A DNA stretch of 64,000 nucleotides, taken from Pseudomonadota bacterium. GTDB lineage: Bacteria > Pseudomonadota > Alphaproteobacteria > Rhizobiales > CAJQND01. Position numbers and translations under genes: made by a program. This document shows positions 11,601 to 46,826 of this stretch, piece after piece. Under the pieces are notes generated by a model. It searched no databases. It was not told the DNA's origin and worked only from the letters and a program-made list of their open reading frames with translations. The stretch's first letter is position 1, and every line of letters begins with the position of its first letter. The stretch lies in contig JBCCEL010000001.1 of assembly GCA_039030315.1 (NCBI GenBank), positions 9,714-73,713 on the forward strand. The letters run 5' to 3'.

Positions 11601-14577
11601 GCATCTGGGTCTGCAGGTGACAGATGCGTTCGACGGGTTCCATGCAGAACCGAAGTTCTTCGATCTCCCCGTTGCGCCCTATGCCGGATTTGATCTGGAC
11701 GCCATTGCCACAGCGCTTGACGAACTGGAACGGGCCGGTGCGATGGATCAGCCAGCAAAGGCCAGGGTCCTGATGGATCTTCTGGAAGATCTCTTGCGGG
11801 AACTGGACCGGAAGGCGCGGCCGCGCCTGACCGCCGAAGTCGGTGGTCTGCAGCTGGATGCCCGGCGCGTAGGGGTTCCGGCTGGCAAGGTTGTACATTT
11901 GTCTGCCCAGCCTGTCGTCGCCGAGACCTACTTTGACAATGGCCACGATTTCTATTGCATGGAGCCGCGTCTGACAGAGATTGCAGCGGGCAGGCTGGAA
12001 GACGCCTGGCTCTTCCCGGGCGTCGCGCTGCAGATCGAAGCCATGCAATTGCCCGAACTTGGGCTCCCGGCTGAAGACTGGTGGCGGGACGCCAGGATCG
12101 CTCCTCTCGGTCGGACAAGGGAATACGGTCTGGACCTCGATCTCACGGACTATGCCAGCAGACCCTTCAGTGATCCCGCCTTCAATTTCTGGCGCCAGTT
12201 CGCACAGGCCGACGTCGCGACTCAGCGCTGGCGCCCGACCGGCCGGCCGATCTACCACTGGATAAGGCCGGTCTCGGCAGTCGGCGGGATCGAGCATGTT
12301 TCCGGCCCCGTCGTCGATCTCAGCCACCTGGTCGCCGATCCTTCGCAGAAATCCTTGTTGTTCGAGTTTGAGAGTGACGCGTTTGACCGGGACGTGGATG
12401 AATCGGACATAGTGCGGGTGCGGCTTGATCCGGTGGACCGGATCACCCGGCTCAACACATTCAGCTGGGAGCAGCACTCCGCTACGGCGCGGCGCCACCG
12501 GATCGATCTGCGGACCCGTTACTGGGGCGGGCTCAGAAATCCTTCTGCTCGGCCCATGGTGGCCCCGCCGTCCGAGCCGCCCAGGGCCGACGATGATCTC
12601 TGGACGAACCGTGCAGCCATACTGGCGGATCTCAGCGTGCTTGAGCTGACCCGCCCCCAGGTCAGGGCGCTTCTGCCTCTGACCCGCCGCGTGGGTGACG
12701 CTGGATCCGCGCTGCCGATCGCCTGCCTGCTGGCGGAGAAGCCGTTTGACCAGGCCGGGCTGGCCGACCGGATCGCAGCCGAGATCGACACGGTGGAGAA
12801 GTTCAGGTTCTACGACCTCGACAGCACGGCCGGTGACCGCCGCCTCGGACTGGAAACGCTCCGCAAGGAAGTCGGACCTGACCCCCGGCTGAGCTACTAC
12901 GGCATCGGAGACCAGCCATCCCGGAAGTTCTCCTTGATGTGCGAAGGGCCCGTCGGGCTGCACTTCGAAGCAGTCGATGCGGCCGCGCCGGCCTTCACCA
13001 ATTCCCAGTACCTGCTGCATATGCGGGCCAGTGGAGACGACGTGCCAGGTATGGATGAGAGCTTTGCCGGCATCTCGCTGCGCCGCTATGTGGATCCGGA
13101 CTGGTCCTGGTCTCCTTACACTGCCGCGCCGGAAAGCCTGCCGGATGTCTGGTGGCAGGACCTGCTGACCGACGAGATGTTCACCGATTTCCTGGTGACC
13201 TACGAGAATCCGCAAAGCGGGCAAACCGTTTCCGCAGTCTCCGTTGCACCATCCGCCGATGGTCAGGAGTTCGTCTTCCGCTTGGCGACAGAGGCAATCT
13301 ATCCAACGCCCGGCGAACTGGATGGCGCGCCGTCATCCGTTGAACTCTGTCGTGTGGCGGTTGGACAGCCGGCAAGCGTTCTCTTCCAGAAGCTTGATGC
13401 CAGCAGATATGCATTCTCGGTCTTCGTGCCCGGTCCTTCCCCGACCCAGACCGCGGTGGAGGTCGACGGGGCGTCCGGGTTGCCGATCCTCCTCGCAAGC
13501 ATGGACTGGACCGCAATGGGCCCGGTGACCGTGAGCGGTGAGGTCAGCATGAAGCGTGCGATCACCGCTTCGGCCGCTACGTTCGTGGAGTGGGCCCGCT
13601 CCGGGCGGGATTTCCAGAAGTTCGTTGCTACGCCCCTCCAAGAGGACGCGGAAGGATCAACTGTCCAGCAGCGGGACATTGAAGCAGTCTGGGACAGGAC
13701 AGAGCGCCGGATTGCACTGCGCTCGGCCGTTTTCGACGACGCGGAGATCCGGCTTTCGAGCCTGACCGGGCAGGAACCCTATCCTCTTCATGTCCAGCGT
13801 CACCTGGCAATCCTGCTGACGAAGGCGTCGCCTGCGCTCGGCCGGGAAGTACCCCTGTTCGACCGGATCCTGCTGAGTGACGGGGCCGGTATCCCCCTGG
13901 CAGGTGATGATCCTGATCCCGGGGCAACTCTGCGGCTGGTGGAGTACGAAACCAGGGCCGAGGTTCTCACCAGCGATCGGTCCCATACGGTCGAGTACTT
14001 CCACCGGGCCTACTTTGATCTGGTGTCGATCGGTGCAGACACCAGATTGCAAAGCGGTGACGGGTTCCGTTTCCATCTGCGCCTCACGAACGGATCAATG
14101 CCGAAGGATATCGCGCCGGTCCTGCACATGAGCGGTGCAGGTGCTCCCGAGGGCGAAACGCCCATTGCCCTGTCCGCCAGGACTCCTGACGAGCTGCAGG
14201 CGCTCACCGTGGAGCTTGTGCTGTCCGATGCGGCCGACACCTGGAACTGGCGGGCAACCGGGCGAACGAAGAACGGCCCTGTGGAGCTCGATGGAGGCAC
14301 CGTGGACCTGCCGTTTCTGGCAGCCGGTGAAGACGGCGTGTGGCTCCGGTTGGAGGCGCCGGGCCCGGGCCTCTGGGCCGACGTCTCCATGCTGTTCTCC
14401 CGCGCGAAGGCAGAAGAGCAGCGGGACGCCGCTTTCGATTTCGACTGGCTGTTCACCGCCGACACCCTGCCGCGCAAGGCCACCGAGGCTGTCATGCCTG
14501 AGAACCTGGTCCACATGTCGGAGGCTCAGGCAAAGATAATCGCCGTCTCCGACCCCATCGTGGTGCAGACGCGCTGA
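8695..14577 (+). CDS. giant protein 2 (1960 aa), unknown function, translationally coupled to giant protein 1
   Basis: GTG start overlaps the upstream TGA (GTGA at 8695..8698). A GAGGAA Shine-Dalgarno sits 6 nt upstream. 5.9 kb uninterrupted ORF. No TM segments, signal peptide or nucleotide-binding motif recognised by eye. Confidence 0.85.
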   Translation: MKIFIHTNTSAEPGAFHGDENKIFYAVHLAAEVCRDAATDTEADAKEVFADFLGKAPTFKYALVPDIGLGVAEAVDVEATAGSLGGLMDWLEQRDPNAAGASDPEPYYLTPTAEPAVTDTFDAATVGAAQLLRSTLNWIGPVPERLGLTRLIAQDSAPSAQAAIIPYLGATPPASVVTDGSTITYDLAGTLGGISEVSVVFEELGDYTAPSSIVLPDGSVEAVPADPEFRRTLNRIDAESAGRLWTVPHMLEPYDDVDWSSLDARKWLADAGLKSAFDPLFWSLAMPATLATGELAPRGQIMLPFIAFLAGANERFGHAAGVDADQAWSTWRPRLRTVLSSLSFADLVGLLRDVEAVDPETLGVLEDAEAGEVPDDGKTADERVAQLRETLNAAVVALQEEAAVEAVIVALLRKVADSSALEPTAERPAFDAAMRAFGEFLEEGFNGADAVRRSVGSIISRELVLKASRDLDALNESLAEADLFARRLLGRTGTPQDLDQLLDALPDSFAGVAPATLRARLQERYREVATMLSSPPAAEMRFVPDTSPQPLAIRILPGMDVAELTEISSALQGFGVVINSKIRGDEDAGHGNLVRVNPGSSTIPTAVQPLIPGLSDGRPVLFAEYNGRPLAGASQTGIGGRDAIEDAEQRAARELASRVYYNLDEAEEEDLLPADLAYGAQYAAKAFWTPNSGRLPAGLRDGTDPSKPVKPAGDFKPQIPDGAAYYLRRTAISETGLSEVDARKRISVVPADVFPLASDYPRIAKSAPAEATGYIDVFRNGDGTGALPDGTASIVLVDALVVGAGAEVQLRRCWDPTGADEGIEFAATLAGNGSDETLQVPADSDARPFWVRVVLTAGSGEGATLSFADPSDDAELEGKPATAPILLLAQGDEWQSEIARENVLELSVPRVSFADFERWAANRELFVHSTGNTDDRLPQVLLVASMMRHLSETIDELIEQLPDPAVSALHLGLQVTDAFDGFHAEPKFFDLPVAPYAGFDLDAIATALDELERAGAMDQPAKARVLMDLLEDLLRELDRKARPRLTAEVGGLQLDARRVGVPAGKVVHLSAQPVVAETYFDNGHDFYCMEPRLTEIAAGRLEDAWLFPGVALQIEAMQLPELGLPAEDWWRDARIAPLGRTREYGLDLDLTDYASRPFSDPAFNFWRQFAQADVATQRWRPTGRPIYHWIRPVSAVGGIEHVSGPVVDLSHLVADPSQKSLLFEFESDAFDRDVDESDIVRVRLDPVDRITRLNTFSWEQHSATARRHRIDLRTRYWGGLRNPSARPMVAPPSEPPRADDDLWTNRAAILADLSVLELTRPQVRALLPLTRRVGDAGSALPIACLLAEKPFDQAGLADRIAAEIDTVEKFRFYDLDSTAGDRRLGLETLRKEVGPDPRLSYYGIGDQPSRKFSLMCEGPVGLHFEAVDAAAPAFTNSQYLLHMRASGDDVPGMDESFAGISLRRYVDPDWSWSPYTAAPESLPDVWWQDLLTDEMFTDFLVTYENPQSGQTVSAVSVAPSADGQEFVFRLATEAIYPTPGELDGAPSSVELCRVAVGQPASVLFQKLDASRYAFSVFVPGPSPTQTAVEVDGASGLPILLASMDWTAMGPVTVSGEVSMKRAITASAATFVEWARSGRDFQKFVATPLQEDAEGSTVQQRDIEAVWDRTERRIALRSAVFDDAEIRLSSLTGQEPYPLHVQRHLAILLTKASPALGREVPLFDRILLSDGAGIPLAGDDPDPGATLRLVEYETRAEVLTSDRSHTVEYFHRAYFDLVSIGADTRLQSGDGFRFHLRLTNGSMPKDIAPVLHMSGAGAPEGETPIALSARTPDELQALTVELVLSDAADTWNWRATGRTKNGPVELDGGTVDLPFLAAGEDGVWLRLEAPGPGLWADVSMLFSRAKAEEQRDAAFDFDWLFTADTLPRKATEAVMPENLVHMSEAQAKIIAVSDPIVVQTR

Positions 14578-14612: not shown

Positions 14613-15800
14613 CTAGAGGCCCAAGGCGCTGGCGATCATGTTCCAGGTCTCCATCTGATACGAATACCCGTCCTGGTCGGGGGTGTAGTAACGGTAGTCG
14701 TAGATGAACACCCCGCCGAACTGCGCACGTCCCGACGCGTCTTTGCCGTAGTGCTGAACGAGATCGTTGACGGCGTCCAGCACAAGGGTTCCGCTCGTGC
14801 AGTTGTCTGTCTGGACCGTGCCCGGCTTGGTGCAACAGTTCTGCTGCGCCGTCGCATCACGGGGCTGGATCCAAAGCCGGAAATCCGGATCACAGATGCA
14901 GGGTGAGAAGCCGGCGAGGCAGAAGTAAGCCGGTTCGGCGATGCCGGAATTGGGGATTGCCGCGGTTGCGCTGACGGCCGTGATGTACTGCTGCAGCACG
15001 GCGCTCGCGCTCCCCTGTTCGCCGCCGGAGTAGTACTGGATGTTCAGCCAACTGATTGAGTTTTGCCGCTCTCCCGCCCCGTTCTCGATCACCGTGTGTC
15101 CAACCAGCGGTGTCGTTTGCGGGGCGCTCTGCTCGGGGCACAGATAGTAGGCGAGCATTGTTTCGAAGCCGGAGCTGCAGTCGAGGTAGCCGTACGGAGC
15201 GTGGGAGACGAGGCGGCCCTCCTTTCCAAACGTGTTGGAGAGTTCGATGAGAACATTCGGATATGTGCTCCACTGCGATTCCATGTCCAGATCAAGGCCG
15301 GTGAGATGGAACGGCGTGAGCACCTGCGCGTCGAAGGCCTCGTAGAAGCCTTCCGTGGTCCAGTTGTTCTGGATGTACGCAAGATCGGCGTCATGCTGCA
15401 TCGAAGCAACAAGGTTCTTCCCGGAAGCGGCGATCTTCTGGAGGTACTCGCCCACATTGGGTAGCAGGCCCCACTTCTGGTCCGGGTGTTTCCAGTCCGG
15501 CGGAGTCGTCATTGGGCTCACGGGAACACCGTTCCAGGTAATCACCGGAGTGTCATGCTGGTACCAGGGAGAGCTCGTGTCGGTGTTTGCAAGTCCGAAG
15601 TAGCCCATGATGAGGTCTGTGAACGGCGCATCGACGAGCATGTCGGTGGTGATTTCGATGGCCTGCTTGACGGCTGTCTGCGTAAGCAGTTCGCTCCCCT
15701 CCCAGGTGTGATTTGCTGTGTTCGCAAGGTTGTACTGTGGCGCGTAGTAGTTCAGGCCAAACGGAGCCGTTACGTAGATTGCAAAGCGAACATTACCCAT
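14613..15800 (-). CDS. glycoside hydrolase family 18-like (chitinase/endo-beta-N-acetylglucosaminidase-like) protein without a signal peptide
   Basis: LTGLDLDMES matches the GH18 catalytic DxDxE signature (nt 15279..15293). The N-terminus starts directly in a beta-strand-like VRFAIYVTAPF. GGAGG lies 9 nt upstream of the ATG at 15800. The C-terminal part is Cys-rich (FCLAGFSPCICD...NCCTKPGTVQTDNCTSG). Confidence 0.7.
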   Translation of the reverse strand: MGNVRFAIYVTAPFGLNYYAPQYNLANTANHTWEGSELLTQTAVKQAIEITTDMLVDAPFTDLIMGYFGLANTDTSSPWYQHDTPVITWNGVPVSPMTTPPDWKHPDQKWGLLPNVGEYLQKIAASGKNLVASMQHDADLAYIQNNWTTEGFYEAFDAQVLTPFHLTGLDLDMESQWSTYPNVLIELSNTFGKEGRLVSHAPYGYLDCSSGFETMLAYYLCPEQSAPQTTPLVGHTVIENGAGERQNSISWLNIQYYSGGEQGSASAVLQQYITAVSATAAIPNSGIAEPAYFCLAGFSPCICDPDFRLWIQPRDATAQQNCCTKPGTVQTDNCTSGTLVLDAVNDLVQHYGKDASGRAQFGGVFIYDYRYYTPDQDGYSYQMETWNMIASALGL

Positions 15801-16275
15801 ATGGAGACCCTCCGATAATAGTGTGAAACTCCGATAGTCTGTTTGGTTCCTTTCATTGTCGAGGGAAATTCAGATGCGGAACCCGCTGGCGGCACCGAAC
15901 TGTGCTGCAGCAGCGCCTGGCACGACAATCTGGATGTAAGCGCGAAATCAAAAACCAGCCAGGTGGTCCGCTGCTTGCGGCAGGAATCTATGACCGGTTG
16001 GGTGGTGAAACCGGAGCTGGAAACTTCCCCCTTGGGCCAGTGTCTTCACATACCGGAATCTGCCCTGAAGGACTTTTCTCCCGCGTCAAGAGGTTGAAAT
16101 TTGGCGAGCGCTTTGTTGACCGGGGTACTTGTAGAAGTATTTTGATTTTTTGGAGTTACCGGCGTCGAGCAGCAATTTCTGCGCGATTTTGGATTTGCTG
16201 TCTGCTGGACGAGATCAGTTATTGTCTGTAGTCTCTAAATAGGAATCGAAATTTATTTGAAGATTAATTGAGCCC

Positions 16276-17466
16276 ATGAGCTTTGTTGGCGGTGACTATA
16301 TTCACGATGTCTTCATCAGTTACAGCCACGGCACGCTGAATGACGGGGTCCCGGGTCCTCTCAAGGACTGGTCCGATGCGTTTGCCGAGGAACTTCGCAC
16401 CCGGATCCATCAGATCTTTCTGTTTCGGAACGTGTCAGTCTTCTTTGATAGCTCAGAACGCCCGGCAGAGAGCGTTGATCGCAGTAGGAAACTAACCGGC
16501 CAAATTCAGAAGCATGTCCGTGGGTCAGCCATCCTGGTCAGTCTCATGACGCCGCACTATTCGGACTCTGATTGGTGCGGCGAGGAGCGGAACTGGTGGA
16601 TTGAAGAAGGCGAGACCCGGACCCTGGACATGGACGGAAGGATCATCGTCTGCAAGGTCATGCCGAACGTGACGGAGGCGGGATGGAGCCTTACCAGAGA
16701 GCACGAGTCCTGGCCGGAGTGTTTCAAGGACGAGAACGGACATGGGCACGTCGGCTTCAGCTTCTACTCTCAGTCCGGCGTGACCGCAGGCACAGTCCCC
16801 TACAAGTGGCTTGGATCAAGCAACGGCCTGGACGAATTTGATGCTGAAATGCGCATGCTCGTGTCCAGCATTACCAACCGGCTCACCGAGATAAAGGCCG
16901 AACTGGACCAACGTGCCCGATGTACGGACCCCGCCGGCGGAGGGGAGAGGGAGCAGATCAGCGTCCGCATCGCAGAGCCGGATTTTGGTGAAGAGTCGAT
17001 CGATGTAATCTATCTGCACGCGCGAAAGCCGCAGGCGGCGTGGTGGAACTCTGTGCGTGACACGCTGATCGACAAGGGGCGGATCATAGTACCTGATGAG
17101 TTGTCGCTGAACGAAATCGGCGCGAGGGAGCAAAAGCGACCGGCAGGAAGGAACGAAGAGCAGGTTGCCGAACGCATAGAGGCGAGAAACGAGCTCCTCT
17201 GCGAGTGCGATGCCATCGTGATCCTGGGCACGGAAAAGAATGATCTCCTGCGCAAAGATCTTCTCAGTATCGGGTTGCGTGCCTGGAGAAAGGCATGCGG
17301 ATTCCAGCGCAAGGTCCTGCCGCGGGCACTGTTGAGCAAGATCGGGGAACCGGTTCCGTTGGCCAGGAATCTCAAGATTCCGGAATGCAACGGCCGCAAT
17401 GCGGCCTGGCCTCGACAACTGGCCGAAGAGTTCAGGCGCACTGCCGCACGCGATGCTGAGCCATGA
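16276..17466 (+). CDS. TIR-domain protein (N-terminal TIR, about 240-aa uncharacterised C-terminal region)
   Basis: DVFISYSHGT at the N-terminus, VFFDSSE, and ILVSLMTPHYSDSDWCGEE (the SxWCxxE-type region holding the usual catalytic Glu, nt 16573..16587). AT-rich upstream region. The stop overlaps the next start (ATGA at 17463..17466). Confidence 0.8.
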   Translation: MSFVGGDYIHDVFISYSHGTLNDGVPGPLKDWSDAFAEELRTRIHQIFLFRNVSVFFDSSERPAESVDRSRKLTGQIQKHVRGSAILVSLMTPHYSDSDWCGEERNWWIEEGETRTLDMDGRIIVCKVMPNVTEAGWSLTREHESWPECFKDENGHGHVGFSFYSQSGVTAGTVPYKWLGSSNGLDEFDAEMRMLVSSITNRLTEIKAELDQRARCTDPAGGGEREQISVRIAEPDFGEESIDVIYLHARKPQAAWWNSVRDTLIDKGRIIVPDELSLNEIGAREQKRPAGRNEEQVAERIEARNELLCECDAIVILGTEKNDLLRKDLLSIGLRAWRKACGFQRKVLPRALLSKIGEPVPLARNLKIPECNGRNAAWPRQLAEEFRRTAARDAEP

Positions 17467-20400
17467 CATTGGTCGCCCCGTTCTCTGAATCTTTAGATCA
17501 TGCGCTGCCGGACAAGCCGTATCCGGGCCTGCGTGCGTTTGAGAAGGAGGAGTGGCCGATCTTCTTCGGCCGTGAACGCATGATGTCCGAGGTTGTCAGC
17601 CGGGTTCTGGAACACCAGCTGGTGGTCGTTCACGGTTCATCCGGTTGCGGAAAATCTTCTCTGATCCGGGCTGGGGTATTGCCGGAACTCGAGATCGAAC
17701 ACAGCGAACTGGGCAAGCAGTGGCGGACCGTGATCACCCGGCCAAGCTACGGTCCGATTGACGGTCTGGCACGGGCCATGGCCGATCTCGTGGAGGCTGG
17801 CTCAAGAGAACCGGAACGTATTGAAGAGGACCTTGCCGAAATCCTTTCATCCGGCCGCGAGGCTGCGCCTAGGCTGGCCGATTACCTCCGCCGGAATGAG
17901 AATGACTACGTCTGTGTCCTGATCGATCAGTTTGAGGAGCTGTTTGCCCATGCCAAGCGGGTGAGCCGGGCCGAAGCAATTGTGTTGACCGATGTGCTGG
18001 TTGGCCTGCAGCAGCATCGGCCAGAGGGGCTGCACTTCATCTTGACCATGCGTTCTGAGTTTCTCGGCGAGTGCGGCCGGTTCGACCGGTTTGCTCAGAC
18101 CGTGAACGCCACGCAGTATCTCCTGCCCGAGATGGAACGGGCAGATCTGCTCCGGGCCATCTGCCACCCCGCCGAACTGTTCAACGGGCACGTGAGTGAG
18201 AAGCTTGCGGTGCGGATGATCCGGGAGACGGAAGGCCGGCAGGATGAATTGCCGCTGATCCAGCACGGGCTGATGCTGATGTCGCAGGACAAGCTGGAAC
18301 GAACTGATCACGCGGAGGAAGACGGCTCGATTGCCGGTTTCAAGGCCTGGAATCTGGACCTTCGGGACTATTCAGAGCGCGGTGGGCTTACGCAGATCCT
18401 TTCAGACCATGCCGATAGGGTGTTTGAGACAGCGCTACAGCAGAACCTGGGGCCAGGCGGTGCCGTGGTCGGCCAGGAGCGTATCCGGGTTCTTCTGGCC
18501 CACACCTTCCGTGCGCTGACGGATGTCAATGCAGAGGGGCAGGCGATCAGGAGGCCGCGAGCATTCGGTGAACTGTGCAGGATTTGCGGTGCGAAGGGAC
18601 CGTTTCTTGCGCGGCTGCTGGCACCCTTCCGAGCGGATGGCGTTTCGTTTCTTGTTCCGTACGAACCCGCCGAGCTCACGGACGACAGCATTGTCGATAT
18701 CAGCCACGAGGCGCTGATCCGCTGTTGGGGGCTCATTGCGAAGGAAGAAACTGGTTGGCTGGCGCAGGAGTTTGAGGCCGGATTGAGATGGCGGACGCTT
18801 GTGCACCAGGCGCGGCGCTCCGGGCCGGGTGCAACCCGCGCGCCACTAAGCGCTTCAGCGACAGAGGATCTGCAGGCATTCCTGCCATCACTGCCATCGT
18901 CCGCGTGGGCGGACCGCTATGGAGGCGGGTATGGGGATGTCAGGAGCCTTCTCGAGCTGAGCCGCCGCGTGAACAGCCAGGCGCAACGGCGGAAGGACGC
19001 GGTTATCAAGTGGGGCGGACTCTCTCTGGCCCTGGTCGCGACGGCGTTCGCCGCAATTTCCGCGTTTCAATGGAGGCAAGCAACGAACTCGCGAGAGGTG
19101 GCGTTGAATGTTGCAAAAATTGCGCGACAAAACGCTGAGAGTGCACGCAGATCATTGGGAAGGGCCGTTGCTGCGCGAAGGGCGATGCGGAAAGCGTTGC
19201 GACGAGCTCGGGAGAGCGAGGCCCGGGCTCGGGAGAGCGAGGCACGGGCTCGGAGAGCATTGGTTAAGGCAGGTCGGGCGGAGCTGGAAGCAGAAAAACA
19301 AGCACTCCTGGCTCGAAAGGCAGAAAAGGAGGCCATCAATGCTGCCAAAGGCCAATCTCTTCTCTGGGCGCGGCAAGCGCGAACGCAATTGAAGAAAAAC
19401 CTTCCATCACTGGCTGCAAACATTGCACTGGCCGGACTTCCTGCAAATCCCGATAATGCCGAGCGGCCCTGGGTTGCCCAACTGGCGGGAGTGCTGATCG
19501 AGGCGCTGAGCAGAATTCAAGCTGCGAGTGCAAGACCGATCCGTCCGGTAGCAGTCAATGCGGCGGCGTTTTCGCCGGACGGAAGGCGGCTGGTGTTTGG
19601 TGGCAGGGATGGAAGGGTGCGCCTCAATGATGCGCGAAGTGGAGCGGTGCTCTGGACCCGGTCCGGTCATCATACGGCAGTTTCTTCCCTCGCCTTTTCT
19701 CCCGACGGTCGGCGGCTGGCGTTCGGCGCAGGAGACGGAGTCGTGCAGGTTTGGGATGCCAATCGTGGCAGGCCCCTTTGGAAACGACAGGGACATAGGG
19801 GCACGGTCACCTCTGTCGCGGTTTCTCCCGATGGCAAACGTGTGGTCTCAGCCGGTTCTGCTGGGCGGTTGCGGCTTTGGGATGCGGTGAGGGGCACTCC
19901 GCTCAAAGATTTGAAAGGCCAGACTGGTGCTGCATCCTCGGTTGCATTTTCGCCCGACGGCAAGCGACTGGCTTCCGCCGGCTCTGGAGAAACGCTGCGA
20001 CTTTGGAACCTTGAGTTTGACGGCAAGTTCGAAGAACTGCACGGGCATGTGAGCGCTGTAAAGTCGGTTGCATTCTCGCCTGACGGCAGACGGCTGGTTT
20101 CGGGAGACAACGACGAGACCGTCCTTCTCTGGGACGCCCGCAGTGGCAAGCTTCTCAGAAGGTTAAGTGGTGACAAGGCCAGGGTATACGCGGTTGGGTT
20201 TTCGCCTGATGGCAAGAGGGTGCTGGCGGCGGGCGGAAAAAACAGAACGGCGCGGCTGTGGGATGCCGAAACAGGCAGAACCCTTGTCGCCCTGAAGAAC
20301 CACAAAAGCGAGGTTAGATCGGTTGTGTTTTCGCCTGACGGCAGGCGCTTTGTGTCTGCGGACCGTGACGGGAACGTCAAGACCTGGCCTCGCCGCCGCG

Positions 20401-21368
20401 GTTACGGCAGGCAGAACCCGCGTATCTCCGGCCCCGTCGGGTTTTCGTCTGACGGCAGGCTGGCGGCGTCAAATGGTTCGCGTGGATCTGGTGGAACGAT
20501 ACGTCTGTGGAACGCGCAGAGCGGCAGGGAACTGCGTGATCTGAAAACCGGCCAAAGCCGGCTCACCAAGTTTGCCCTTTCGCCTGACGGCAAGCGCTTG
20601 GCTTCCGGTGGGGCCGACGGAACAGTAAGAATTTTGAACGTTGCCACCGGTCGGCCCCTTTATCAAATGAAGGGGCATCGCGCCAGCGTGACCTCCATCG
20701 CGTTTTCGCTTGACGGCCGGCGGGTGGTATCGGGTGGTTACGACAAGTCAGTGGGACTTTGGGACGCGGTGAAGGGGCAGCAACTTTGGAGGGTCGCCAG
20801 CCGACAGAGTTTCGTTTATGCCGTCGCCGCTTCGTCGGATGGCAAACTGGTGGCGTCCGGCGGTTTTGACGGGACGGTTCGCCTTTGGGGTGCAGCTGGT
20901 GGCCGGGCATTGAGGGTCTTCAAAGGTAGACAGAGTGTGGTGATGTCGGTTGCCATTTCGCCCGATAGCAAGCGGGTAGCTTCCGGCGGCCGTGACGGGA
21001 CGGTGCGGATCTGGGACATTGCAAGTGGGCGCCAGATTCTTAATCTGAAGGGCCACAAGGACGGCGCGGTCTCGGTCGGATACTCGCCCGATGGCAAGCG
21101 AGTGGTTGCCGGAGACAACAGCTCGACCGTACGGATCTGGGACGTAGAAAGTGGCGAAGAACTGATCCAGTTCCGCGGGATACAGGGCGGGGCCACCTAC
21201 GCGGAGTTCTTGTCAGATGGACGAAGGGTGGCGTTCGGCGGCGCGGGCGCATTCGCTATCGCCTTCGTTGGACGGACCAGGGAGGATCTGCTCAAATATG
21301 CGCGGAGTCGCGTTCCGGGGCGTTTGACCACTGAACAGAGAAAACAATTCCTTCTGCCGGCAAACTGA
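17463..21368 (+). CDS. STAND-type P-loop NTPase with a hydrophobic segment, Arg-rich coiled coil and about 14 WD40 repeats
   Basis: N-terminal PYPGLRAFEKEEWPIFFGRE followed by Walker A GSSGCGKSS (17634..17660) and Walker B-like VCVLIDQFEELF. Hydrophobic WGGLSLALVATAFAAISAFQW. Coiled coil with RESEARA duplicated. Then repeated xFSPDGxRLxSGxxDxTxRLWD units from about 19540 to 21250, enough for two 7-bladed propellers. Confidence 0.9.
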   Translation: MTLVAPFSESLDHALPDKPYPGLRAFEKEEWPIFFGRERMMSEVVSRVLEHQLVVVHGSSGCGKSSLIRAGVLPELEIEHSELGKQWRTVITRPSYGPIDGLARAMADLVEAGSREPERIEEDLAEILSSGREAAPRLADYLRRNENDYVCVLIDQFEELFAHAKRVSRAEAIVLTDVLVGLQQHRPEGLHFILTMRSEFLGECGRFDRFAQTVNATQYLLPEMERADLLRAICHPAELFNGHVSEKLAVRMIRETEGRQDELPLIQHGLMLMSQDKLERTDHAEEDGSIAGFKAWNLDLRDYSERGGLTQILSDHADRVFETALQQNLGPGGAVVGQERIRVLLAHTFRALTDVNAEGQAIRRPRAFGELCRICGAKGPFLARLLAPFRADGVSFLVPYEPAELTDDSIVDISHEALIRCWGLIAKEETGWLAQEFEAGLRWRTLVHQARRSGPGATRAPLSASATEDLQAFLPSLPSSAWADRYGGGYGDVRSLLELSRRVNSQAQRRKDAVIKWGGLSLALVATAFAAISAFQWRQATNSREVALNVAKIARQNAESARRSLGRAVAARRAMRKALRRARESEARARESEARARRALVKAGRAELEAEKQALLARKAEKEAINAAKGQSLLWARQARTQLKKNLPSLAANIALAGLPANPDNAERPWVAQLAGVLIEALSRIQAASARPIRPVAVNAAAFSPDGRRLVFGGRDGRVRLNDARSGAVLWTRSGHHTAVSSLAFSPDGRRLAFGAGDGVVQVWDANRGRPLWKRQGHRGTVTSVAVSPDGKRVVSAGSAGRLRLWDAVRGTPLKDLKGQTGAASSVAFSPDGKRLASAGSGETLRLWNLEFDGKFEELHGHVSAVKSVAFSPDGRRLVSGDNDETVLLWDARSGKLLRRLSGDKARVYAVGFSPDGKRVLAAGGKNRTARLWDAETGRTLVALKNHKSEVRSVVFSPDGRRFVSADRDGNVKTWPRRRGYGRQNPRISGPVGFSSDGRLAASNGSRGSGGTIRLWNAQSGRELRDLKTGQSRLTKFALSPDGKRLASGGADGTVRILNVATGRPLYQMKGHRASVTSIAFSLDGRRVVSGGYDKSVGLWDAVKGQQLWRVASRQSFVYAVAASSDGKLVASGGFDGTVRLWGAAGGRALRVFKGRQSVVMSVAISPDSKRVASGGRDGTVRIWDIASGRQILNLKGHKDGAVSVGYSPDGKRVVAGDNSSTVRIWDVESGEELIQFRGIQGGATYAEFLSDGRRVAFGGAGAFAIAFVGRTREDLLKYARSRVPGRLTTEQRKQFLLPAN
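19206..19260 (+). repeat. 21-bp in-frame tandem duplication (about 2.6 copies) inside the STAND coiled coil
   Basis: gctcgggagagcgaggcccgg / gctcgggagagcgaggcacgg / gctcggagagca, encoding ARESEARARESEARARRA. Confidence 0.8.
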
Positions 21369-21651
21369 GCTTGAGCGATCGGACTTGGCATTCTGTCGGT
21401 CCCGACCCCGAAGGGCATTCCTGGTGGTGCGGATCGATCAGTCCCAAAAGGTCCTGTTGAAATTGCTCAGTCCCGCGGAGCGATGGAAGCATGGTTTGTT
21501 GAACCGTCCTGGGGCGTTTGCACGGCAGTTCGCGATGATCTCGAACAGCGGCATGTCTTTCAGCGCTTTACATCACCAGCCACCATAGTGGTCGGCGTTC
21601 ACGAAATCACTGAGATGGTCTCCAAGAGCGCAACTCGGCGCAGCAGTGCTG

Positions 21652-24090
21652 TTATCGGCGATTGGTCGGTTTCCACCTTGCATCCCAGGCAACGAGTTCC
21701 GCCTCCAACACGGGCCAAACCTCGGCCAGCTCCCACAAGTCGTCGTACCAGGGCGGTGTTGGAAGTTCGACGTCAACGGCATCCGGCAAAACCTGTTCGG
21801 ACAACCCGCATTTCTCGAGCTCCGGCAAGACCTGTGTTTCGATGTCCTGATGCAGGGATATTGACCAGAGAGCGATCAGATCCGATCTGGCAGCTATGGC
21901 AATTTTTGCCAGATAGCCTTCGAACCCCTGGCCCGCAAAGTGGCTCCAAAACGTCTGGATCAGGCCCTTCGGCCAATGCGGGTGTTTGCCGTTCAACGAA
22001 GACTGGAGCACCGTTTCCAGGGCTTTGTACACGTCTGAATGCAGATGGTGCGAAAGTGCCCGGCTGATCCAGAGTTTGTGTGCGTCCGGCAGAATTTTGG
22101 CTTCGCGCGAAAAGTCCGGCAGAAGATCGGAAAGCGCGCAAAAGTGTCTCTCGACTTCAGGACTGAATGTGCCGGGTTCAGAGGAGTGGGCAAAGTCAGG
22201 CCACGCCTCGTCCAGCACGCTGGGTCTGATCTCGCGGATGCGTTCGGGTAACTCGATCTCCGGAGCATGATGAAGCTCTCCGGTCGATGCGATATGCACG
22301 ATGAGTTCGTGCCGGATTCGATCAGCGAAGAAAGTATCCGGAGAGTGCAGGCTGTGCCGGAAGGCCGACCTGACATTTCCAAAAGTCAGTTCCCCGGAGC
22401 GGGAGTATGCCAACAAGCCGACGGGATGCTCCCGGTGACGCGCGATGACATGATCGATCTCGCTTGGGCTTTGCAGCTTGAGCACTTCGCCATCGAAGAC
22501 ATGAACCCGGTCAATCATGCCTTGCCACCATCGGGCGTCCTGAACGCCCGGAGGCCTCTGAAACTGCTCTTCGATCGTGCCAGCGGGCGGTTTGAGTTCC
22601 TGCGTTCCGTGCGGCACACCCGGAAAGCGCGCGAGCGTCTGATAACACCTCAACCTCTCGGGTCCATCGTTAAGAGTCGCGAGAAAAGCGTCGTTCATGG
22701 CCCAGTTTCTTGTCCAGCGTGTGTGCCATGTCGATGGTGGCGGCTTGCTTTCGACCAGTGACACCGGATTTCTCCAGATGCGCAGAAGCCTCATCCAGGC
22801 AAGGCTGGTCGGTTGCATGTGCCGCGTATGCTGAAGAAAGTTTATCAGCCTGGACTTCTGCAGCCTGCCGAGGGCCGCCCCAAATCGCTCCTCCACATAG
22901 GCCACCAGTTCGGGTTCCGACTTGTCAATCAATGCATCCGCAATGAAGTCGAGTTGCGTTTCCATGACCGGAACGTACTCAAAGATCCCGTGGAGCCGTA
23001 TCAATGCGGACAAGTCCGTAGGGCTGCGAAAGTTGCCGACGCACGCTGAGCAATAAACGTTGTTTACAAGCTTCTTGGCGAAACGCGCGCTGGCGTTGCC
23101 GTGCAGCATAAACACGCGCGCCAGGTCGCCGCAGATAGACGGATGCGTGAATGTTTGCGCGACACGGCAGTCCGGGTTCCTCTGGGCCAGTTCCATGGCG
23201 AAGGAACTTCCCATCTCGCCGGCATCCCTCGCGTTCATGGGGGCAAGCCTGAAGCTGGCATCAAAAACCTTGGTGAGGAACTCCTGGATTTGCTGCTGAG
23301 TTTGCGCCGCTTCGAGTATCGGCGAGTCGTCAAAGACCACCAACACAACACCTTCAAAGTCCAGCCTGTGACGGTTCAGACTTTTGAGAACCGCTTCCTG
23401 CTGTTCGGTCGATGCACGATCCAGATCATCAATTATGAGCATGTCGGGCCGCATGATAATTCGGTCGGCAGCGGTGTAGAGCACCTGCGACAGGGGGTTC
23501 CCGAGGCGCAGCGATCGCCAGACGTCGCGCACGACGTGGCGCAGCGAACCGAAACTCAGCGCAAGGAAGCTCAAGACGGAAAGCAGCAGCTGTTGCTGGG
23601 CAAGAAACTCCAGGCCTGAGATTAGAGACAGGTTTTGCGTGAGGAAAAAGACTGCAACCGCGAGCGATGTGGCGATGATCAGGAGCAGCCTAAGTCGCGC
23701 GCCCTCGATGAAATGATCGAAATTGTAAAGCAGGTCTTCGGGCGCGTAGTTTGCGCAATTGAAGTTCAGTATTCTTGCGGGAACCAGTTTCTTGCGACCG
23801 GAGATTATCTTCAGATCAATGTCACGCCGCAGTTGTTCGATCACTCCCGACTTGCCCTGGCCAAACCGTCCGTGCAGAGCGAGAAAGAGGTTTTTCGGGC
23901 CCTGATTCCGGGAGGCAGCCTTTCGATGGAGAAAACTGTCGACCGTTCTGAGCAACTCTCCTGCAATCCGGTTCTGCTCGAACAGTTCGGGCAGATGGGG
24001 CTCGGAGGTTGACGCGTCGTCCAGCAGGAACCGGTCGGGCGGAGCCGGCCGTCGCTCAGGCCATTCGCCACGCCCAGCTCTGGACATCAC
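21652..24090 (-). CDS. KAP-family P-loop NTPase (membrane-inserted), last gene of the kinase operon
   Basis: Walker A GRFGQGKSG (23848..23871). Two hydrophobic helices are inserted between Walker A and B (LLLIIATSLAVAVFFLT, LLLSVLSFLALSFGSL). Walker B is MLIIDDLDRAS, the DDLDR form typical of KAP NTPases. About 430 aa of C-terminal region are unassigned. The start overlaps the upstream stop (GTGATG at 24085..24090). Confidence 0.85.
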   Translation of the reverse strand: MMSRAGRGEWPERRPAPPDRFLLDDASTSEPHLPELFEQNRIAGELLRTVDSFLHRKAASRNQGPKNLFLALHGRFGQGKSGVIEQLRRDIDLKIISGRKKLVPARILNFNCANYAPEDLLYNFDHFIEGARLRLLLIIATSLAVAVFFLTQNLSLISGLEFLAQQQLLLSVLSFLALSFGSLRHVVRDVWRSLRLGNPLSQVLYTAADRIIMRPDMLIIDDLDRASTEQQEAVLKSLNRHRLDFEGVVLVVFDDSPILEAAQTQQQIQEFLTKVFDASFRLAPMNARDAGEMGSSFAMELAQRNPDCRVAQTFTHPSICGDLARVFMLHGNASARFAKKLVNNVYCSACVGNFRSPTDLSALIRLHGIFEYVPVMETQLDFIADALIDKSEPELVAYVEERFGAALGRLQKSRLINFLQHTRHMQPTSLAWMRLLRIWRNPVSLVESKPPPSTWHTRWTRNWAMNDAFLATLNDGPERLRCYQTLARFPGVPHGTQELKPPAGTIEEQFQRPPGVQDARWWQGMIDRVHVFDGEVLKLQSPSEIDHVIARHREHPVGLLAYSRSGELTFGNVRSAFRHSLHSPDTFFADRIRHELIVHIASTGELHHAPEIELPERIREIRPSVLDEAWPDFAHSSEPGTFSPEVERHFCALSDLLPDFSREAKILPDAHKLWISRALSHHLHSDVYKALETVLQSSLNGKHPHWPKGLIQTFWSHFAGQGFEGYLAKIAIAARSDLIALWSISLHQDIETQVLPELEKCGLSEQVLPDAVDVELPTPPWYDDLWELAEVWPVLEAELVAWDARWKPTNRR

Positions 24091-25322
24091 TCGGCTGCTT
24101 GTCTTAGCTCGAGACGGTTCGTTTCGCTGTTGCGGTCTGCTTCAAAGCCTTTGTCGAGAGGAATCAGCCGACCGCCGTCCCCCAACCGCGTGAAGACGCG
24201 TCCAGGCCGTGTTTGCGGAACATTGCCGGTAAAGTGGATCTCGGTTTTGACACTCTGCCGATGGTTGAGGTCGGTATAGACCAGGTAACTGTCCCGCTTG
24301 TATGGGCCGGTGATGAGCGGCAGGCGCATGAGCCACGCCACCACATCAAACCACCGGAAGATCTCGGCCAACTGCTTGTCAAAATCTTCTGGAGCGAAGA
24401 CCCGGTTACGGTGTATCGCCGGATTGCGTGTCTCCCGCAAAGTCGCGCAGGCTTCGGTGAAGAACTCCGAGAATTTCTGATTCTCATCCAAATGGAAGTA
24501 GGACTTGATCAGGCCCATGTCGTTGGAACCCTCCAGCCGGTTCAACTGGTTGGATATCCATGATTCAAGTTTGGACGCTGGCGCCTCGGTGCCGGGAGGC
24601 GCTTTCGTGTCCAAATTGAGGCTGGAGACGATCCCGTAGATCAGCTGCGCAAACTCAAGATTGAAGTTCTCGCGAAACTTGCTGAGCTCGGTGAAAAAAT
24701 CCTTGGCCGCGTCATCATCCAAGAACCCTGAACCCGCCAGACGCTTATAGCTGTTCAAGGTGTCGCGAGCGAGATCCCGGAGAGTCGGGAACCCGGATTC
24801 CATCACAAGGGAAAGGACTCGAGCCACATATCTGTCGTGGATCTGCTTGAGAAAAAAATCCGCATACGTCGCGGCCGTCATGTACTCGTGCGCGTCGTCC
24901 GCCTCTTTATCTATGCTGGACTTCACAATGTACGGGATCTGGGCTTTGGCTCCGGCGAAGTTGGCCAGATTGGTGTTGGGGTAAGCGGTAAACAGCGCCA
25001 TGAAGCCGGGCGGGTCCCATGCTCGCAGTTCCTCTATGAAATCTCGTCCCTTCTCCCGGGATACCGGACCTCCGGGCTCGTCAGGCAGATTCTGATCAAT
25101 CGATACTCCGTGAAAGCAGTGATTGCGAACTAGCTTCAATGCCTCGGCTGTTGTTTCTGCGCAACTGAGGTCAACGTCGACGTCGAGTGTATCGCCTGCG
25201 ATCCGCATGGCCCGTTTGATGTCAGCTATCCAGGTCGGAGTGTCCTCAATGACAAGAATTCGCATTACGTGCTTCACGAACGTTTCCTTCAACTTCAAGC
25301 AAGCTTCAGAGCCGGAGTTCAA
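24087..25322 (-). CDS. response-regulator receiver (REC) domain protein with a C-terminal HEPN-like (RNxxxH) domain and no HTH
   Basis: REC hallmarks: RILVIEDT (acidic pair), HGVSIDQNLPD (phospho-acceptor Asp), MALFTAY (Thr) and PYIVKSS (Lys). The C-terminal region contains TLRETRNPAIHRN, an Rx4H motif with Asn after Arg (nt 24411..24428). The 25322 start is TTG. GTG at 25277 (AAGGA 7 nt upstream) or ATG at 25265 are alternative starts. Confidence 0.75.
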   Translation of the reverse strand: MNSGSEACLKLKETFVKHVMRILVIEDTPTWIADIKRAMRIAGDTLDVDVDLSCAETTAEALKLVRNHCFHGVSIDQNLPDEPGGPVSREKGRDFIEELRAWDPPGFMALFTAYPNTNLANFAGAKAQIPYIVKSSIDKEADDAHEYMTAATYADFFLKQIHDRYVARVLSLVMESGFPTLRDLARDTLNSYKRLAGSGFLDDDAAKDFFTELSKFRENFNLEFAQLIYGIVSSLNLDTKAPPGTEAPASKLESWISNQLNRLEGSNDMGLIKSYFHLDENQKFSEFFTEACATLRETRNPAIHRNRVFAPEDFDKQLAEIFRWFDVVAWLMRLPLITGPYKRDSYLVYTDLNHRQSVKTEIHFTGNVPQTRPGRVFTRLGDGGRLIPLDKGFEADRNSETNRLELRQAAE

Positions 25323-28083: not shown

Positions 28084-29726
28084 GCGTCACCTTCAATTTT
28101 CGCAAACTTTGGAATGGTAAATCGAAATTTCACGGTTGCATCGGACAGGAGCCGCGATTCGGGCGCAAATCCGAACGAACCTCCCAAGTGTTGAGCAATC
28201 TGCCGGCACAAATACAGCCCCTGGCCGTGGCCGACTCCCATGGGCTTGCTCGTTATGCCCTTTTCAAAAATTCGGCTTGATATCTTAACAGGAATGTCGG
28301 GTCCGTCATTGGCAATGATGATGTAGATTTTGTCATCCTGCGAATAGGCTTCGATTGCGATTGTGTGCTTCGGGCCGGAGTCGTGCTCATTGACATCCGG
28401 AATGTCTTCCTTTGCGGCTCCTTGCTCCAGCTCCAGTGGCTTTTCAGCCTGAAGTGAAGGGTCTTCGATCGGGTCCGTTTGATCCGGCACACCATTCGAG
28501 TCAGGCTGTTGCAGGGTCGGCAGAATGGCCTCTAACGCGTTTATCACAACATTCATCACAACGTGCTCGATGTATCGGGCATCCGACACCACTTCGAGAT
28601 CATCCGGTATGTCGATCAGGAACTGAGAGCGGGCGCGGTCCAGGTTGTGCTGAAGAACGGTCTCGACTTCGCGAACCAACGAAAGCAGATCGATTTTGGT
28701 TGCCGGATTCCTGCGCTCGTAGTTCGTAAACGCATCGGTAGTTCTCTTCGCATGATCGATTCTGGTCCGGACGAAGTTAAGCTCTTGCGCGAGATGAAAA
28801 AGCTCTCCGTCGTTGGCCGCGAGAGCGGTATACAATTCTGCCAGAATTTCAGTTGTTCTGCTCAGAGACGACTCCATCAGGCTGAGACTGGTCCCAAGTT
28901 CATGGGTAATTGCACTCGGCGCCAGTCCGGACAACAGCTTCCTTTGGTCTTCTTCTACATGGTCGTGGAGAGATCGAACTCTGTGTTGGAGCAGGGTAAA
29001 AATGTCCGGGACCAGCTGAATAATGTCCCACTCCTGATGGGCCCCGAGAGGAAATGACTTCCCGCCTTCACCTGTGGGATAGAGTGCCAGCAGCGAACGC
29101 TCCGGCTCGCCGCTTTCCGACGCAGGCAGCGGAAGGGAGCAGAGCCAGAACTCTCCCTTGCCGTGCAGGTTGTCGAACTCGTCGGTGTACCGCATATCGT
29201 CGATCGCTCCGTATCCGGCGACGATGCTCCGCAATTCAAAATCATAGCTATGCCGGTGAACAAGCAGGCCGATCAGGAACCTGGACTTCTCTTGACCGCG
29301 CAAGGATTCGCGCAGGTTCTCCACCCGTTGCGGGTTCTTGCTGACCATGTATGGAGCGGTCAGCCCTCGGACTCGAACGCTTTTCTCCGGATACGCCTCC
29401 AGGACCAGAACGCTCCGATCGGAGGCGTCATCCTTAGCCAGCTCTGAAAACAGGCTAGAGAGGAACTGGTTTCGCGAAACCCCGCCCCGAATGGCCTCAA
29501 GCATCTGGCGAATTAACCGCAGGTACGAGGCTGCGGTCCGAGAAGTGGGATTGTGTTTGTCCTGTGATCCGGCGATCGCCTGGATCATTTCTCGCGTAGC
29601 CGTATCGGCGATTGCATCGATGGACTTTCCGCCAGATTGCGCCTGTCTCAGTGCGCTCAAGATTTGGCTTCTGACTTGCGTAGTGACGTTTTCGAGGCGT
29701 ACTTGGGCTTTGGTCTCTCTATTCAA
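28080..29726 (-). CDS. soluble sensor histidine kinase (first gene of the operon)
   Basis: H-box SAITHELGTSL. N-box MNVVINALEA. G1 IANDGPDI. G2 GVGHGQGLYL. No TM segment. The N-terminal 270 aa are unassigned. TTG start at 29726 preceded by AGGAGG. About 50 aa of acidic insertion sit between the N-box and G1. Confidence 0.85.
   Translation of the reverse strand: MNRETKAQVRLENVTTQVRSQILSALRQAQSGGKSIDAIADTATREMIQAIAGSQDKHNPTSRTAASYLRLIRQMLEAIRGGVSRNQFLSSLFSELAKDDASDRSVLVLEAYPEKSVRVRGLTAPYMVSKNPQRVENLRESLRGQEKSRFLIGLLVHRHSYDFELRSIVAGYGAIDDMRYTDEFDNLHGKGEFWLCSLPLPASESGEPERSLLALYPTGEGGKSFPLGAHQEWDIIQLVPDIFTLLQHRVRSLHDHVEEDQRKLLSGLAPSAITHELGTSLSLMESSLSRTTEILAELYTALAANDGELFHLAQELNFVRTRIDHAKRTTDAFTNYERRNPATKIDLLSLVREVETVLQHNLDRARSQFLIDIPDDLEVVSDARYIEHVVMNVVINALEAILPTLQQPDSNGVPDQTDPIEDPSLQAEKPLELEQGAAKEDIPDVNEHDSGPKHTIAIEAYSQDDKIYIIIANDGPDIPVKISSRIFEKGITSKPMGVGHGQGLYLCRQIAQHLGGSFGFAPESRLLSDATVKFRFTIPKFAKIEGDA

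Positions 29727-46750: not shown

Positions 46751-46826
<76 letters not shown>

Follow-up and report, generated by a model that had tools for sequence, protein, structure and literature searches.

A TIR protein and an nSTAND1-WD40 partner encoded by overlapping genes: a candidate membrane-anchored NLR-like switch in Pseudomonadota

A pair of overlapping genes encoding a TIR protein and a STAND (signal transduction ATPase with numerous domains) NTPase was analyzed in a stretch of 64,000 nucleotides (nt) of a Pseudomonadota metagenome-assembled genome (MAG) (assembly GCA_039030315.1, contig JBCCEL010000001.1, positions 9,714 to 73,713), hereafter called the window. An initial annotation, made from the DNA alone, had proposed that the pair is an immune module similar to the nucleotide-binding leucine-rich repeat receptors (NLRs), in which effector, switch and repeat sensor are split over two co-translated genes. 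This logic was borne out, and all the sequence features listed at that time are present at the same positions. A hydrophobic helix and a charged stalk of about 160 residues, both located between the NTPase and the WD40 repeats, had been overlooked. The features of the pair are the following (ORF, open reading frame; aa, amino acids; CTD, C-terminal domain; pLDDT, predicted local distance difference test):

16276..17466, + strand: ORF1 ("TIR-CTD"), 396 aa, NCBI MEM7424459.1 (ORF list and exact NCBI protein match)
16276..16923, + strand: TIR domain, aa 1-216, including a long C-terminal helix at 185-216 (Pfam TIR_2, Foldseek, secondary structure of the model)
16585..16587, + strand: codon of E104, predicted catalytic Glu of S98-x-W100-C101-x-x-E104 (alignment to plant TIR NADases, invariance)
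16924..16995, + strand: variable, low-confidence linker, aa 217-240 (pLDDT <50 over aa 218-239; window-specific insertion and alignment gaps)
16996..17463, + strand: CTD, aa 241-396, alpha/beta, likely adaptor to nSTAND1 (no Pfam family; family profile, predicted fold, fusions)
17463..17466, + strand: ATGA start/stop overlap of ORF1 and ORF2 (read from the sequence)
17463..21368, + strand: ORF2, 1301 aa, NCBI MEM7424460.1 (ORF list, NCBI)
17517..18809, + strand: nSTAND1 NTPase module, aa 19-449 (PF20703, 231.5 bits, E 3.4e-68)
19011..19067, + strand: hydrophobic helix, aa 517-535 (WGGLSLALVATAFAAISAF), predicted single-pass membrane segment (Kyte-Doolittle; conserved in relatives)
19068..19547, + strand: charged helical stalk or linker, aa 536-695 (sequence)
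19202-19258, + strand: 21-bp tandem repeat, 2.8 copies, 89% matches, encoding ARESEAR heptads in the ORF2 stalk
19548..21287, + strand: WD40 array, about 14 blades, two 7-bladed propellers, predicted sensor (Pfam WD40, 12 stretches, E 8.9e-109)

In NCBI both products are singletons of a Pseudomonadota MAG, MEM7424459.1 being annotated as a TIR domain-containing protein and MEM7424460.1 as hypothetical. The start of ORF1 is backed by the N-terminus MSFVG, which is conserved in the family. The ATGA coupling of the TIR and STAND genes is found at 17463-17466 as described, and in relatives the two genes likewise overlap by 4 nt or are separated by no more than 24 nt. ORF2 reads, in order, nSTAND1 NTPase, hydrophobic helix, stalk and 14 WD40 blades. 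Promoter and terminator scans gave no signal above shuffled expectation. Both ORFs and four neighbours were compared with PADLOC (PADLOC-DB v2), Pfam and NCBIfam.

The Pfam family TIR_2 (PF13676) matches aa 12-110 of ORF1 with 25.6 bits, just under its gathering score of 28, and the family TIR (PF01582) reaches 16.6 bits, below its gathering score of 21.3. Because the protein's own Pfam score is sub-threshold, the TIR assignment rests on a fold search, on relatives situated above threshold and on motif conservation. The sister proteins P0012 and P0013 exceed the TIR_2 gathering score, with 44-48 bits. An AlphaFold model of ORF1 built from 11 family sequences (mean pLDDT 70) displays the flavodoxin-like TIR fold through about aa 216, followed by a disordered linker at aa 217-240. 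Its top Foldseek matches in the PDB are the plant TIRs RPP1, RPS4 and RUN1, SARM1 and the SPARTA TIR (probability 1.0, E down to 1.7e-5). The SxWCxxE catalytic region, previously reported as intact, is present as S98-D-W100-C101-G-E103-E104 and is aligned by HMMER with the 'SSWCLDE' of plant TIR NADases. Within it, E104 is the glutamate on the helix after strand C, as in enzymatic NADase-type TIRs. A profile of the CTD was searched against 1.84 billion representatives (E <= 1e-3) and 80 of the matches were aligned: Y16, C101 and E104 are invariant in 11 of 11 sequences and in all 80 family representatives. The site suggested earlier for mutation of the catalytic Glu (nt 16582-16587) does cover the codons of E103 and E104, of which only the latter (16585-16587) specifies the family-invariant residue. 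On this sequence evidence, ORF1 is predicted to cleave NAD+ through Glu104.

The nSTAND1 match of ORF2 reaches 231.5 bits against a cut-off of 27.1. The P-loop STAND motifs given by the initial annotation were all located, namely PYPGLRAF, FFGRE, the Walker A motif GSSGCGKSS (aa 58-66, nt 17634-17660, with Lys64 at 17652-17654) and the Walker B motif DQFEE (aa 155-159, nt 17925-17939). These NTPase motifs are invariant in six nSTAND1 partners. A Pfam search of aa 1-520 for NACHT (PF05729) and NB-ARC gave no match at E <= 0.01. PADLOC returned for ORF2 one strong match, to the candidate model HEAT-ARM_XIII, which is a non-specific WD40/coiled-coil match, and marginal P-loop matches to mad3 and mad8 (E ~0.007-0.01). 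The NTPase belongs to the nSTAND1 clade and the protein is not retained as one of the Avs/bNACHT type; the PADLOC check proposed for the locus yielded no defence-system assignment. When ORF1, the N-terminus of ORF2 and the profiles of the CTD and of nSTAND1 were searched against PDB sequences, no solved relative of nSTAND1 or of the CTD was found, and the matches were limited to marginal TIR and generic WD40 ones. Two candidate identities of ORF1 were also rejected: FxsC of the FxSxx-COOH system (NCBIfam NF040588), for which ORF1 scores 23.7 bits against a cut-off of 130, and Thoeris, for which the match to ThcB4 (Thoeris type III) has E 0.0086 and 15 bits against 220, and no ThsA-type third gene occurs in more than 50 contexts.

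The association of the two genes was analyzed in other genomes. A pattern scan with one genome per species gave 50 loci, 48 of them with a match to the ORF1 family, in Alpha-, Beta- and Gammaproteobacteria, Myxococcales, Acidobacteriota, Verrucomicrobiota and Entotheonella. An nSTAND1 gene lies directly downstream on the same strand in 45 of the 48 loci, the other three being contig ends or fragments, and in 40 of those 45 the nSTAND1 profile begins 0-50 nt after the stop of the ORF1 homologue. The same order is found in six metagenome contexts, where the genes overlap by 4 nt or 1 nt or are 24 nt apart, and in cultured strains (3/3: Pseudomonas fluorescens, Thauera phenylacetica and Halomonas sp. 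BM-2019), all with an upstream TIR-CTD gene and a 4-nt overlap. A search with the ORF2 N-terminus gave at least 1096 relatives at E <= 1e-20. The two proteins co-diverge: their pairwise identities are correlated with r = 0.874 over 35 pairs, a value reached by 0 of 2000 permutations. Single-chain TIR-CTD-nSTAND1 fusions are also found, namely P0129 and an ORF of locus L045 (6881-9766). In none of more than 50 contexts is the pair joined by a third conserved gene. As judged from these contexts, the pair is a conserved, self-contained module. The flanks of the six metagenome contexts are unrelated and consist mostly of housekeeping genes. The initial annotation had envisaged that the pair could turn out to be a broadly conserved core gene set; the patchy distribution across several phyla and the differing flanks argue against such a housekeeping set. 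At six loci (L034, L035, L051, L053, L056 and L058) the TIR-CTD gene, the nSTAND1 gene or both are split or truncated, which could be due to frameshifts, decay or MAG assembly errors.

The part of ORF1 located behind the TIR domain had been described as about 240 extra residues with a second beta-alpha-beta-like stretch, possibly a docking domain. The stretch was recovered, with the strands VIYLH and AIVIL in an alpha/beta domain; the size was revised to about 155 residues (aa 241-396). In the AlphaFold model the CTD strands are at 244-248 (VIYLH), 270-272, 313-317 (AIVIL), 350-354 and 370-372. The CTD has no Pfam match at E <= 10. Its profile retrieved 223 proteins, nearly all of about 360-375 aa with the CTD at about 215-360, and the matches are confined to ORF1-type proteins, plus the fused L045 chain. 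In fused proteins the CTD is directly N-terminal to nSTAND1; P0116 reads CTD-nSTAND1 in a single chain. In P0061 (L062, 301-1908) a ParA/MinD-like ATPase replaces the TIR in front of the CTD. Pairing (45/48 loci), co-divergence (r = 0.874), the fusions P0129 and L045 and the swapped N-terminal domain of P0061 point to the CTD as a constant adaptor beside nSTAND1, in line with the docking role first suggested; since it always adjoins nSTAND1, it is the likely docking domain, and a direct CTD-nSTAND1 contact is predicted. An EAD-coupled system was rejected, as the nSTAND1 of ORF2 starts at residue 19, which leaves no room for an adaptor, and the NTPase contains no further copy of the CTD, so that the coupling is not of the homotypic EAD type. 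The family would define a new effector-docking domain, other than the EAD pair. On its short contig P0061 has no nSTAND1 downstream, and the next frame opens with the TIR-like 'DVFVSYSRAD'.

Modelled alone, the CTD gave a pLDDT of 70 and a predicted template-modelling score (pTM) of 0.68, and its fold matches are the TIR of TIR-STING, nucleoside 2-deoxyribosyltransferase, DNPH1, BcmB and the SPARTA TIR (E 1e-3 to 3e-2). Because of these E values, and because a profile-profile comparison with the TIR of the same protein is not significant, the CTD is weakly TIR-like or nucleoside deoxyribosyltransferase (NDT)-like, at fold level. The CTD as an internal duplicate of the TIR was rejected (hhalign probability 0.6%). 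The CTD as DUF4062 or NDT was likewise rejected, matches being sub-threshold and in relatives only: DUF4062 (PF13271) has E 0.005-0.008, below cut-off, at the CTD position of the sister-clade proteins P0012 and P0013, and no match in the window CTD. Nor does the CTD belong to the DUF4062 NADases of the Swarozyc/TEP1 type, given the lack of a PF13271 match and a position 328 that is mostly Asp. This position (D328, codon at nt 17257-17259, on the helix after the third CTD strand) is acidic in 77 of the 80 representatives (Asp in 60, Glu in 17), and a nucleotide-related role of the CTD may therefore be possible. The ORF1 of the window is a divergent member of the family; it shares 33% identity with the TIR-CTD protein that accompanies its nearest nSTAND1 relative. 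Its residue 350 (nt 17323-17325) is Arg where 63 of the 80 have Cys (motif 'LPCAV'), and its residue 385 (nt 17428-17430) is Glu where 75 of the 80 have Trp.

The hydrophobic helix of ORF2 sits ten residues past the end of the family nSTAND1 profile. Its mean Kyte-Doolittle (KD) value is 1.71 over the 19 residues aa 517-535, and a 19-residue stretch that starts at aa 514 has the highest value of the protein, 1.76. An equivalent helix, with an Arg-rich cluster ahead of it, was present in all five partners aligned first. In 39 non-redundant relatives the segment has 19-27 residues, a KD value of 1.5-3.3 and an Arg/Lys cluster before it, and it occupies the same place in every complete relative. 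The 15-residue flanks of the helix in these 39 relatives contain on average 5.4 K+R before and 2.4 after, with net charges of +3.7 and +0.4; over 30-residue flanks, the net charge is higher on the N-side in 34 of 37 relatives. An even number of cysteines is reportedly a signature of exported, disulfide-bonded domains. After the helix the Cys count is even in 26 relatives, zero in 8 and odd in 3 (even or zero in 34/37), compared to 21 even and 16 odd before it, and Cys density is 1.03% before the helix versus 0.55% after it (37 relatives). The simplest reading of these data is a bitopic N-in/C-out protein whose ATPase is cytoplasmic and whose sensor is extracytoplasmic and interchangeable. Since the conserved single-pass helix separates the sensor from the NTPase, the sensor is probably not cytosolic, unlike that of NLR and Avs proteins. 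For the ORF2 of the window this outward topology is predicted by homology, and it is the weakest case in the family, because of its low hydrophobicity, its basic stalk and its lack of Cys after the helix. The ARESEAR repeat accounts for part of the unusual positive charge of the stalk.

The WD40 blades extend over aa 702-1289 (register 702, 744, ... 1248) with a spacing of 38-45 residues, the last blade being degenerate; their number, 14, agrees with the earlier count. A highly repetitive, recombining array of the fungal NLR type was rejected, as mean blade identity is 38% and the only DNA tandem repeat is the 21-bp one of the stalk. Across relatives, the domains located after the helix are of several types: WD40, TPR (about 20 repeats), Sel1 (9 repeats), FGE-sulfatase (E 2.3e-59) and an unannotated Cys-pair domain. 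The last is the commonest; it has about 100 residues, no Pfam match and exactly two conserved Cys, in the pair 'RCFRxxEC'. The sensor class switches between close relatives while the chassis is otherwise conserved, and one Roseiarcus MAG contains two paralogues (L040 and L050), one with Sel1 and one with an unclassified region after the helix. The Cys-pair domain follows the pattern 'RVYIHIA..QR..A...VPGVELV...LRCFRxxEC...L.L.DLS.RY...RHFEIWF' and is found at the C-termini of the nSTAND1 partners L012-L015, L017, L019, L020, L022, L033, L043, L063, L064 and L066.

We propose that the products of ORF1 and ORF2 act together as one NLR-like switch, which is anchored in the inner membrane; we give this reading a probability of about one half. 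The nSTAND1 ATPase of ORF2 would be located in the cytoplasm, followed by one membrane-spanning helix and the long charged helical stalk, and the two WD40 propellers would come last and face the periplasm, as suggested at the level of the family. ORF1 would be a TIR enzyme of the cytoplasm, bound to the ATPase by means of its CTD. Binding of a macromolecular ligand to the propellers would release ATP-dependent oligomerisation of nSTAND1, which would cluster the attached TIRs; these would then gain NAD+ cleavage via Glu104, leading to growth arrest or cell death. By analogy, such activation would follow that of the oligomerisation-activated TIRs of plant TIR-NLRs, SARM1 and bacterial TIR effectors. 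Because there is no conserved third gene, direct NAD+ depletion is more economical than Thoeris-like signalling. Within this scheme the domain anatomy, the pairing with its fusions, the invariant catalytic and P-loop residues, the conserved helix with its charge and Cys statistics and the exchange of domains after the helix are observed, whereas we infer the CTD-nSTAND1 contact, the membrane topology, the NADase activity, the trigger and the immune role.

The following observations weigh against it. PADLOC gave no match for ORF1 and has no model specific for the pair; on 128 flanking proteins of 40 loci it found singletons only, mostly helicase-type models, with no clear defence enrichment, and a tblastn search for phage or plasmid homologues gave no match. 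The fold call of the CTD is weak (pLDDT 70, Foldseek E 1e-3 to 3e-2, hhalign to its own TIR not significant), and the ORF1 of the window is off consensus at two highly conserved CTD positions (C350R and W385E). The ORF2 helix has the third-lowest hydrophobicity of 39 (KD 1.76; lower are L033 with 1.53 and L020 with 1.59). The stalk of the window is an outlier, with a net charge of +4, +11 and +15 over 30, 60 and 100 residues for a family mean of about 0, and its charge bias is reversed, +3 being found before the helix. There are 0 Cys in the 766 residues after the helix.

These last features would fit a model along the lines of the initial annotation, namely an anti-phage NLR of the Avs/bNACHT-like kind that is split over two genes and lies wholly in the cytoplasm, with WD40 repeats that would bind a phage protein inside the cell. 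The hydrophobic segment would then form a helix that is buried or peripheral, or that at most tethers the protein to the membrane. By the positive-inside rule so basic a stalk should stay in the cytoplasm, and the WD40 part is free of Cys. Cytoplasmic STAND-WD40 receptors are moreover well known, and Apaf-1-like bacterial STANDs have been described (PMC13581612). We nevertheless regard this model as unlikely: the 19-27-residue segment is present in every complete relative, with a positive-inside bias in 34/37 and a Cys count that is even or zero in 34/37, and a single charge-flanked helix puts large domains on opposite sides unless it is never inserted. ORF2 also has no Pfam NACHT match, and its match to HEAT-ARM_XIII is non-specific. 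The membrane-anchored switch could also have the same anatomy and another role, that of transmembrane surveillance of envelope damage, of contact-dependent attack by toxins or predators, or of kin/non-kin recognition, with the TIR leading to growth arrest. The mostly housekeeping flanks, the absence of PADLOC enrichment and of phage or plasmid copies, and a predicted extracytoplasmic sensor blind to cytoplasmic phage proteins would agree with such a role, as would the link of nSTAND1-type systems with multicellular or social bacteria (Kaur, Iyer, Burroughs, Aravind 2021, eLife, PMC8195603), the hosts here including Myxococcales, Entotheonella and soil Alphaproteobacteria. A patchy spread resembling horizontal transfer, sensor swaps and same-genome paralogues are however equally typical of anti-phage receptors, and some loci lie near conflict-type genes (L004/L011 and L066); we hold a non-phage role to be rather improbable, and its analogy with the fungal STAND-WD40 allorecognition proteins of the HET-E type is put forward with the same reserve.

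The kinds of effector and of switch, the exchange of sensors, the patchy spread over several phyla and the same-genome paralogues would speak for an immune role, and so would occasional conflict-type neighbours (a caspase-FGE-sulfatase gene at L004/L011, MoxR-vWA and patatin at L066, and a KAP NTPase operon in the window). The singleton-only PADLOC flanks, the mostly housekeeping neighbours and the lack of phage or plasmid copies would be neutral or speak against it. A further alternative concerns the output: the TIR could generate a signal, as happens in Thoeris or type IV-like systems, in the form of a nucleotide derived from ADP-ribose; the target would be an unlinked effector or the CTD of ORF1, and NAD+ would not be depleted. 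The acidic residue of the CTD (D/E in 77/80) is topologically like the active-site position of TIR and NDT and could bind or process a nucleotide; ORF1 weakly matches a Thoeris type III protein in NCBIfam (E 0.0086), and DUF4062-type TIR-like domains beside STAND-WD40 are active NADases (Osinski et al. 2026, 10.64898/2026.05.01.722283). Against this count the absence of a third conserved gene in more than 50 contexts, the absence of any detected receiver of the SLOG, Macro, SAVED or CARF type and the weak evidence for the fold of the CTD, and we judge a signal-generating TIR very improbable.

Beyond the single locus, the family as a whole might be a pattern-recognition receptor that senses outside the cytoplasm, with periplasmic sensors that can be swapped, namely WD40, TPR, Sel1, FGE-sulfatase or lectin-like domains and a small disulfide domain, and that would signal ligand binding through one helix to a STAND ATPase assembling a separate TIR NADase; we advance this tentatively, as somewhat less probable than its contrary. 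If true, it would combine a Toll-like spatial logic with an NLR-type switch, would be widespread in Proteobacteria, including Pseudomonas fluorescens, and would be a receptor of a kind missing from current defence catalogues. Characterised bacterial STAND/NLR-like receptors (Avs, bNACHT) detect phage proteins inside the cell. A STAND sensor beyond the inner membrane would carry this receptor class into the periplasm, the first site where phage tail and ejection proteins, bacteriocins, secreted toxins and predators are met, and would give a bacterial counterpart of the Toll-like layout with the sensor outside and the TIR inside. Should the sensor be cytoplasmic, the finding would shrink to a split TIR-nSTAND1 system. 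Bacteria that can be cultured and are genetically tractable carry the module (Pseudomonas fluorescens, Thauera, Halomonas, Variovorax and Ramlibacter), so that its topology, any NADase activity and its trigger can be tested directly.

The surroundings of the pair were also considered. GC (guanine plus cytosine) content is 0.54-0.62 at about 15000-30000 of the window, compared to 0.62-0.65 at 2-14 kb; this low-GC interval takes in the TIR/nSTAND1 pair and the KAP operon and is compatible with an acquired island. The only tRNA of the window is a tRNA-Lys at 46751-46826. The KAP operon (21652-29726, - strand) consists of four overlapping genes convergent with ORF2, for a histidine-kinase-like protein of 548 aa, a GAF histidine kinase of 925 aa, a receiver-HEPN-like protein of 411 aa and a KAP-family P-loop NTPase of 812 aa. 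The HEPN-like region of the 411-aa protein includes a 'TRNPAIH' Rx4H motif, and both Pfam matches of this protein are below cut-off. PADLOC gave no match on these four genes; they could represent a second conflict system, of HEPN/KAP type and under two-component control. On the + strand, two very large ORFs of 2470 and 1960 aa (1286-8698 and 8695-14577), which are translationally coupled, match no Pfam or NCBIfam family. At related loci, a caspase (Peptidase_C14) plus FGE-sulfatase gene is convergent directly after the module (L004, 8541-10283; L011, 5112-6827), followed in L004 by a RyR-domain protein, and MoxR-vWA and patatin genes are near the module in L066.

No description of a split TIR-CTD/nSTAND1 pair, or of its conserved membrane helix, was found in the literature. 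Among the closest known systems are the nSTAND1 conflict systems. The study that named nSTAND1 described STAND-FGS systems with TIR among their N-terminal effectors, which are either fused N-terminally or recruited via paired identical adaptor domains (EADs), and called the lectin-type sensors intracellular (PMC8195603). The NTPase family, the TIR effectors, the variable C-terminal sensors (FGS, repeats) and the predicted counter-invader switch are common to those systems and to the present pair; here, by contrast, the TIR is on a separate protein, docking would occur through a family-specific domain, and a conserved membrane helix precedes the sensor. A recent survey of STAND proteins (Nature 2026) lists WD40 and FGE-sulfatase domains among the sensors and gives labels to the nSTAND clades. 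The Avs, bNACHT and TIR-NLR proteins (Gao 2022; Kibby 2023) also unite an effector, a STAND switch and a repeat sensor, TIR being among the known effectors, whereas the present pair has an NTPase of another clade, two polypeptides and a predicted extracytoplasmic sensor; only some bNACHT proteins with several transmembrane segments were named as possible sensors of membrane or periplasmic signals (Kibby et al. 2023). TEP1/NWD1 and the bacterial Swarozyc proteins resemble it in having a TIR-like domain directly N-terminal to a STAND NTPase, followed by WD40 (10.64898/2026.05.01.722283), whereas the CTD of the window has no DUF4062 match, has mostly Asp in its family in place of the invariant Glu, and stands behind a canonical TIR.

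The closest structural matches of the ORF1 TIR are plant TIR-NLRs (RPP1, ROQ1) and SARM1, which have SxWCxxE in common with it and whose TIR NADase is switched on by oligomerisation. They differ in being single-chain and cytosolic, with NB-ARC or ARM-SAM scaffolds and not nSTAND1. The likeness to animal Toll-like receptors is architectural only, with a repeat sensor outside, one membrane helix and a TIR output inside: sensor and switch are not homologous, Toll-like receptors have no NTPase, and their TIR is a scaffold in the same chain. PknD is a bitopic receptor composed of a kinase, a transmembrane (TM) helix and an NHL propeller. Some metacaspases have a TM helix with the N-terminus intracellular and the C-terminus extracellular, and others carry WD40 or FGE-sulfatase domains (Asplund-Samuelsson 2012, PMC3501461). 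PknD and the metacaspase-TM-WD40/FGE-sulfatase proteins resemble the predicted ORF2 in their N-in/C-out single pass and in a repeat or propeller sensor outside, whereas here the cytoplasmic module would be a STAND ATPase with a separately encoded TIR partner.

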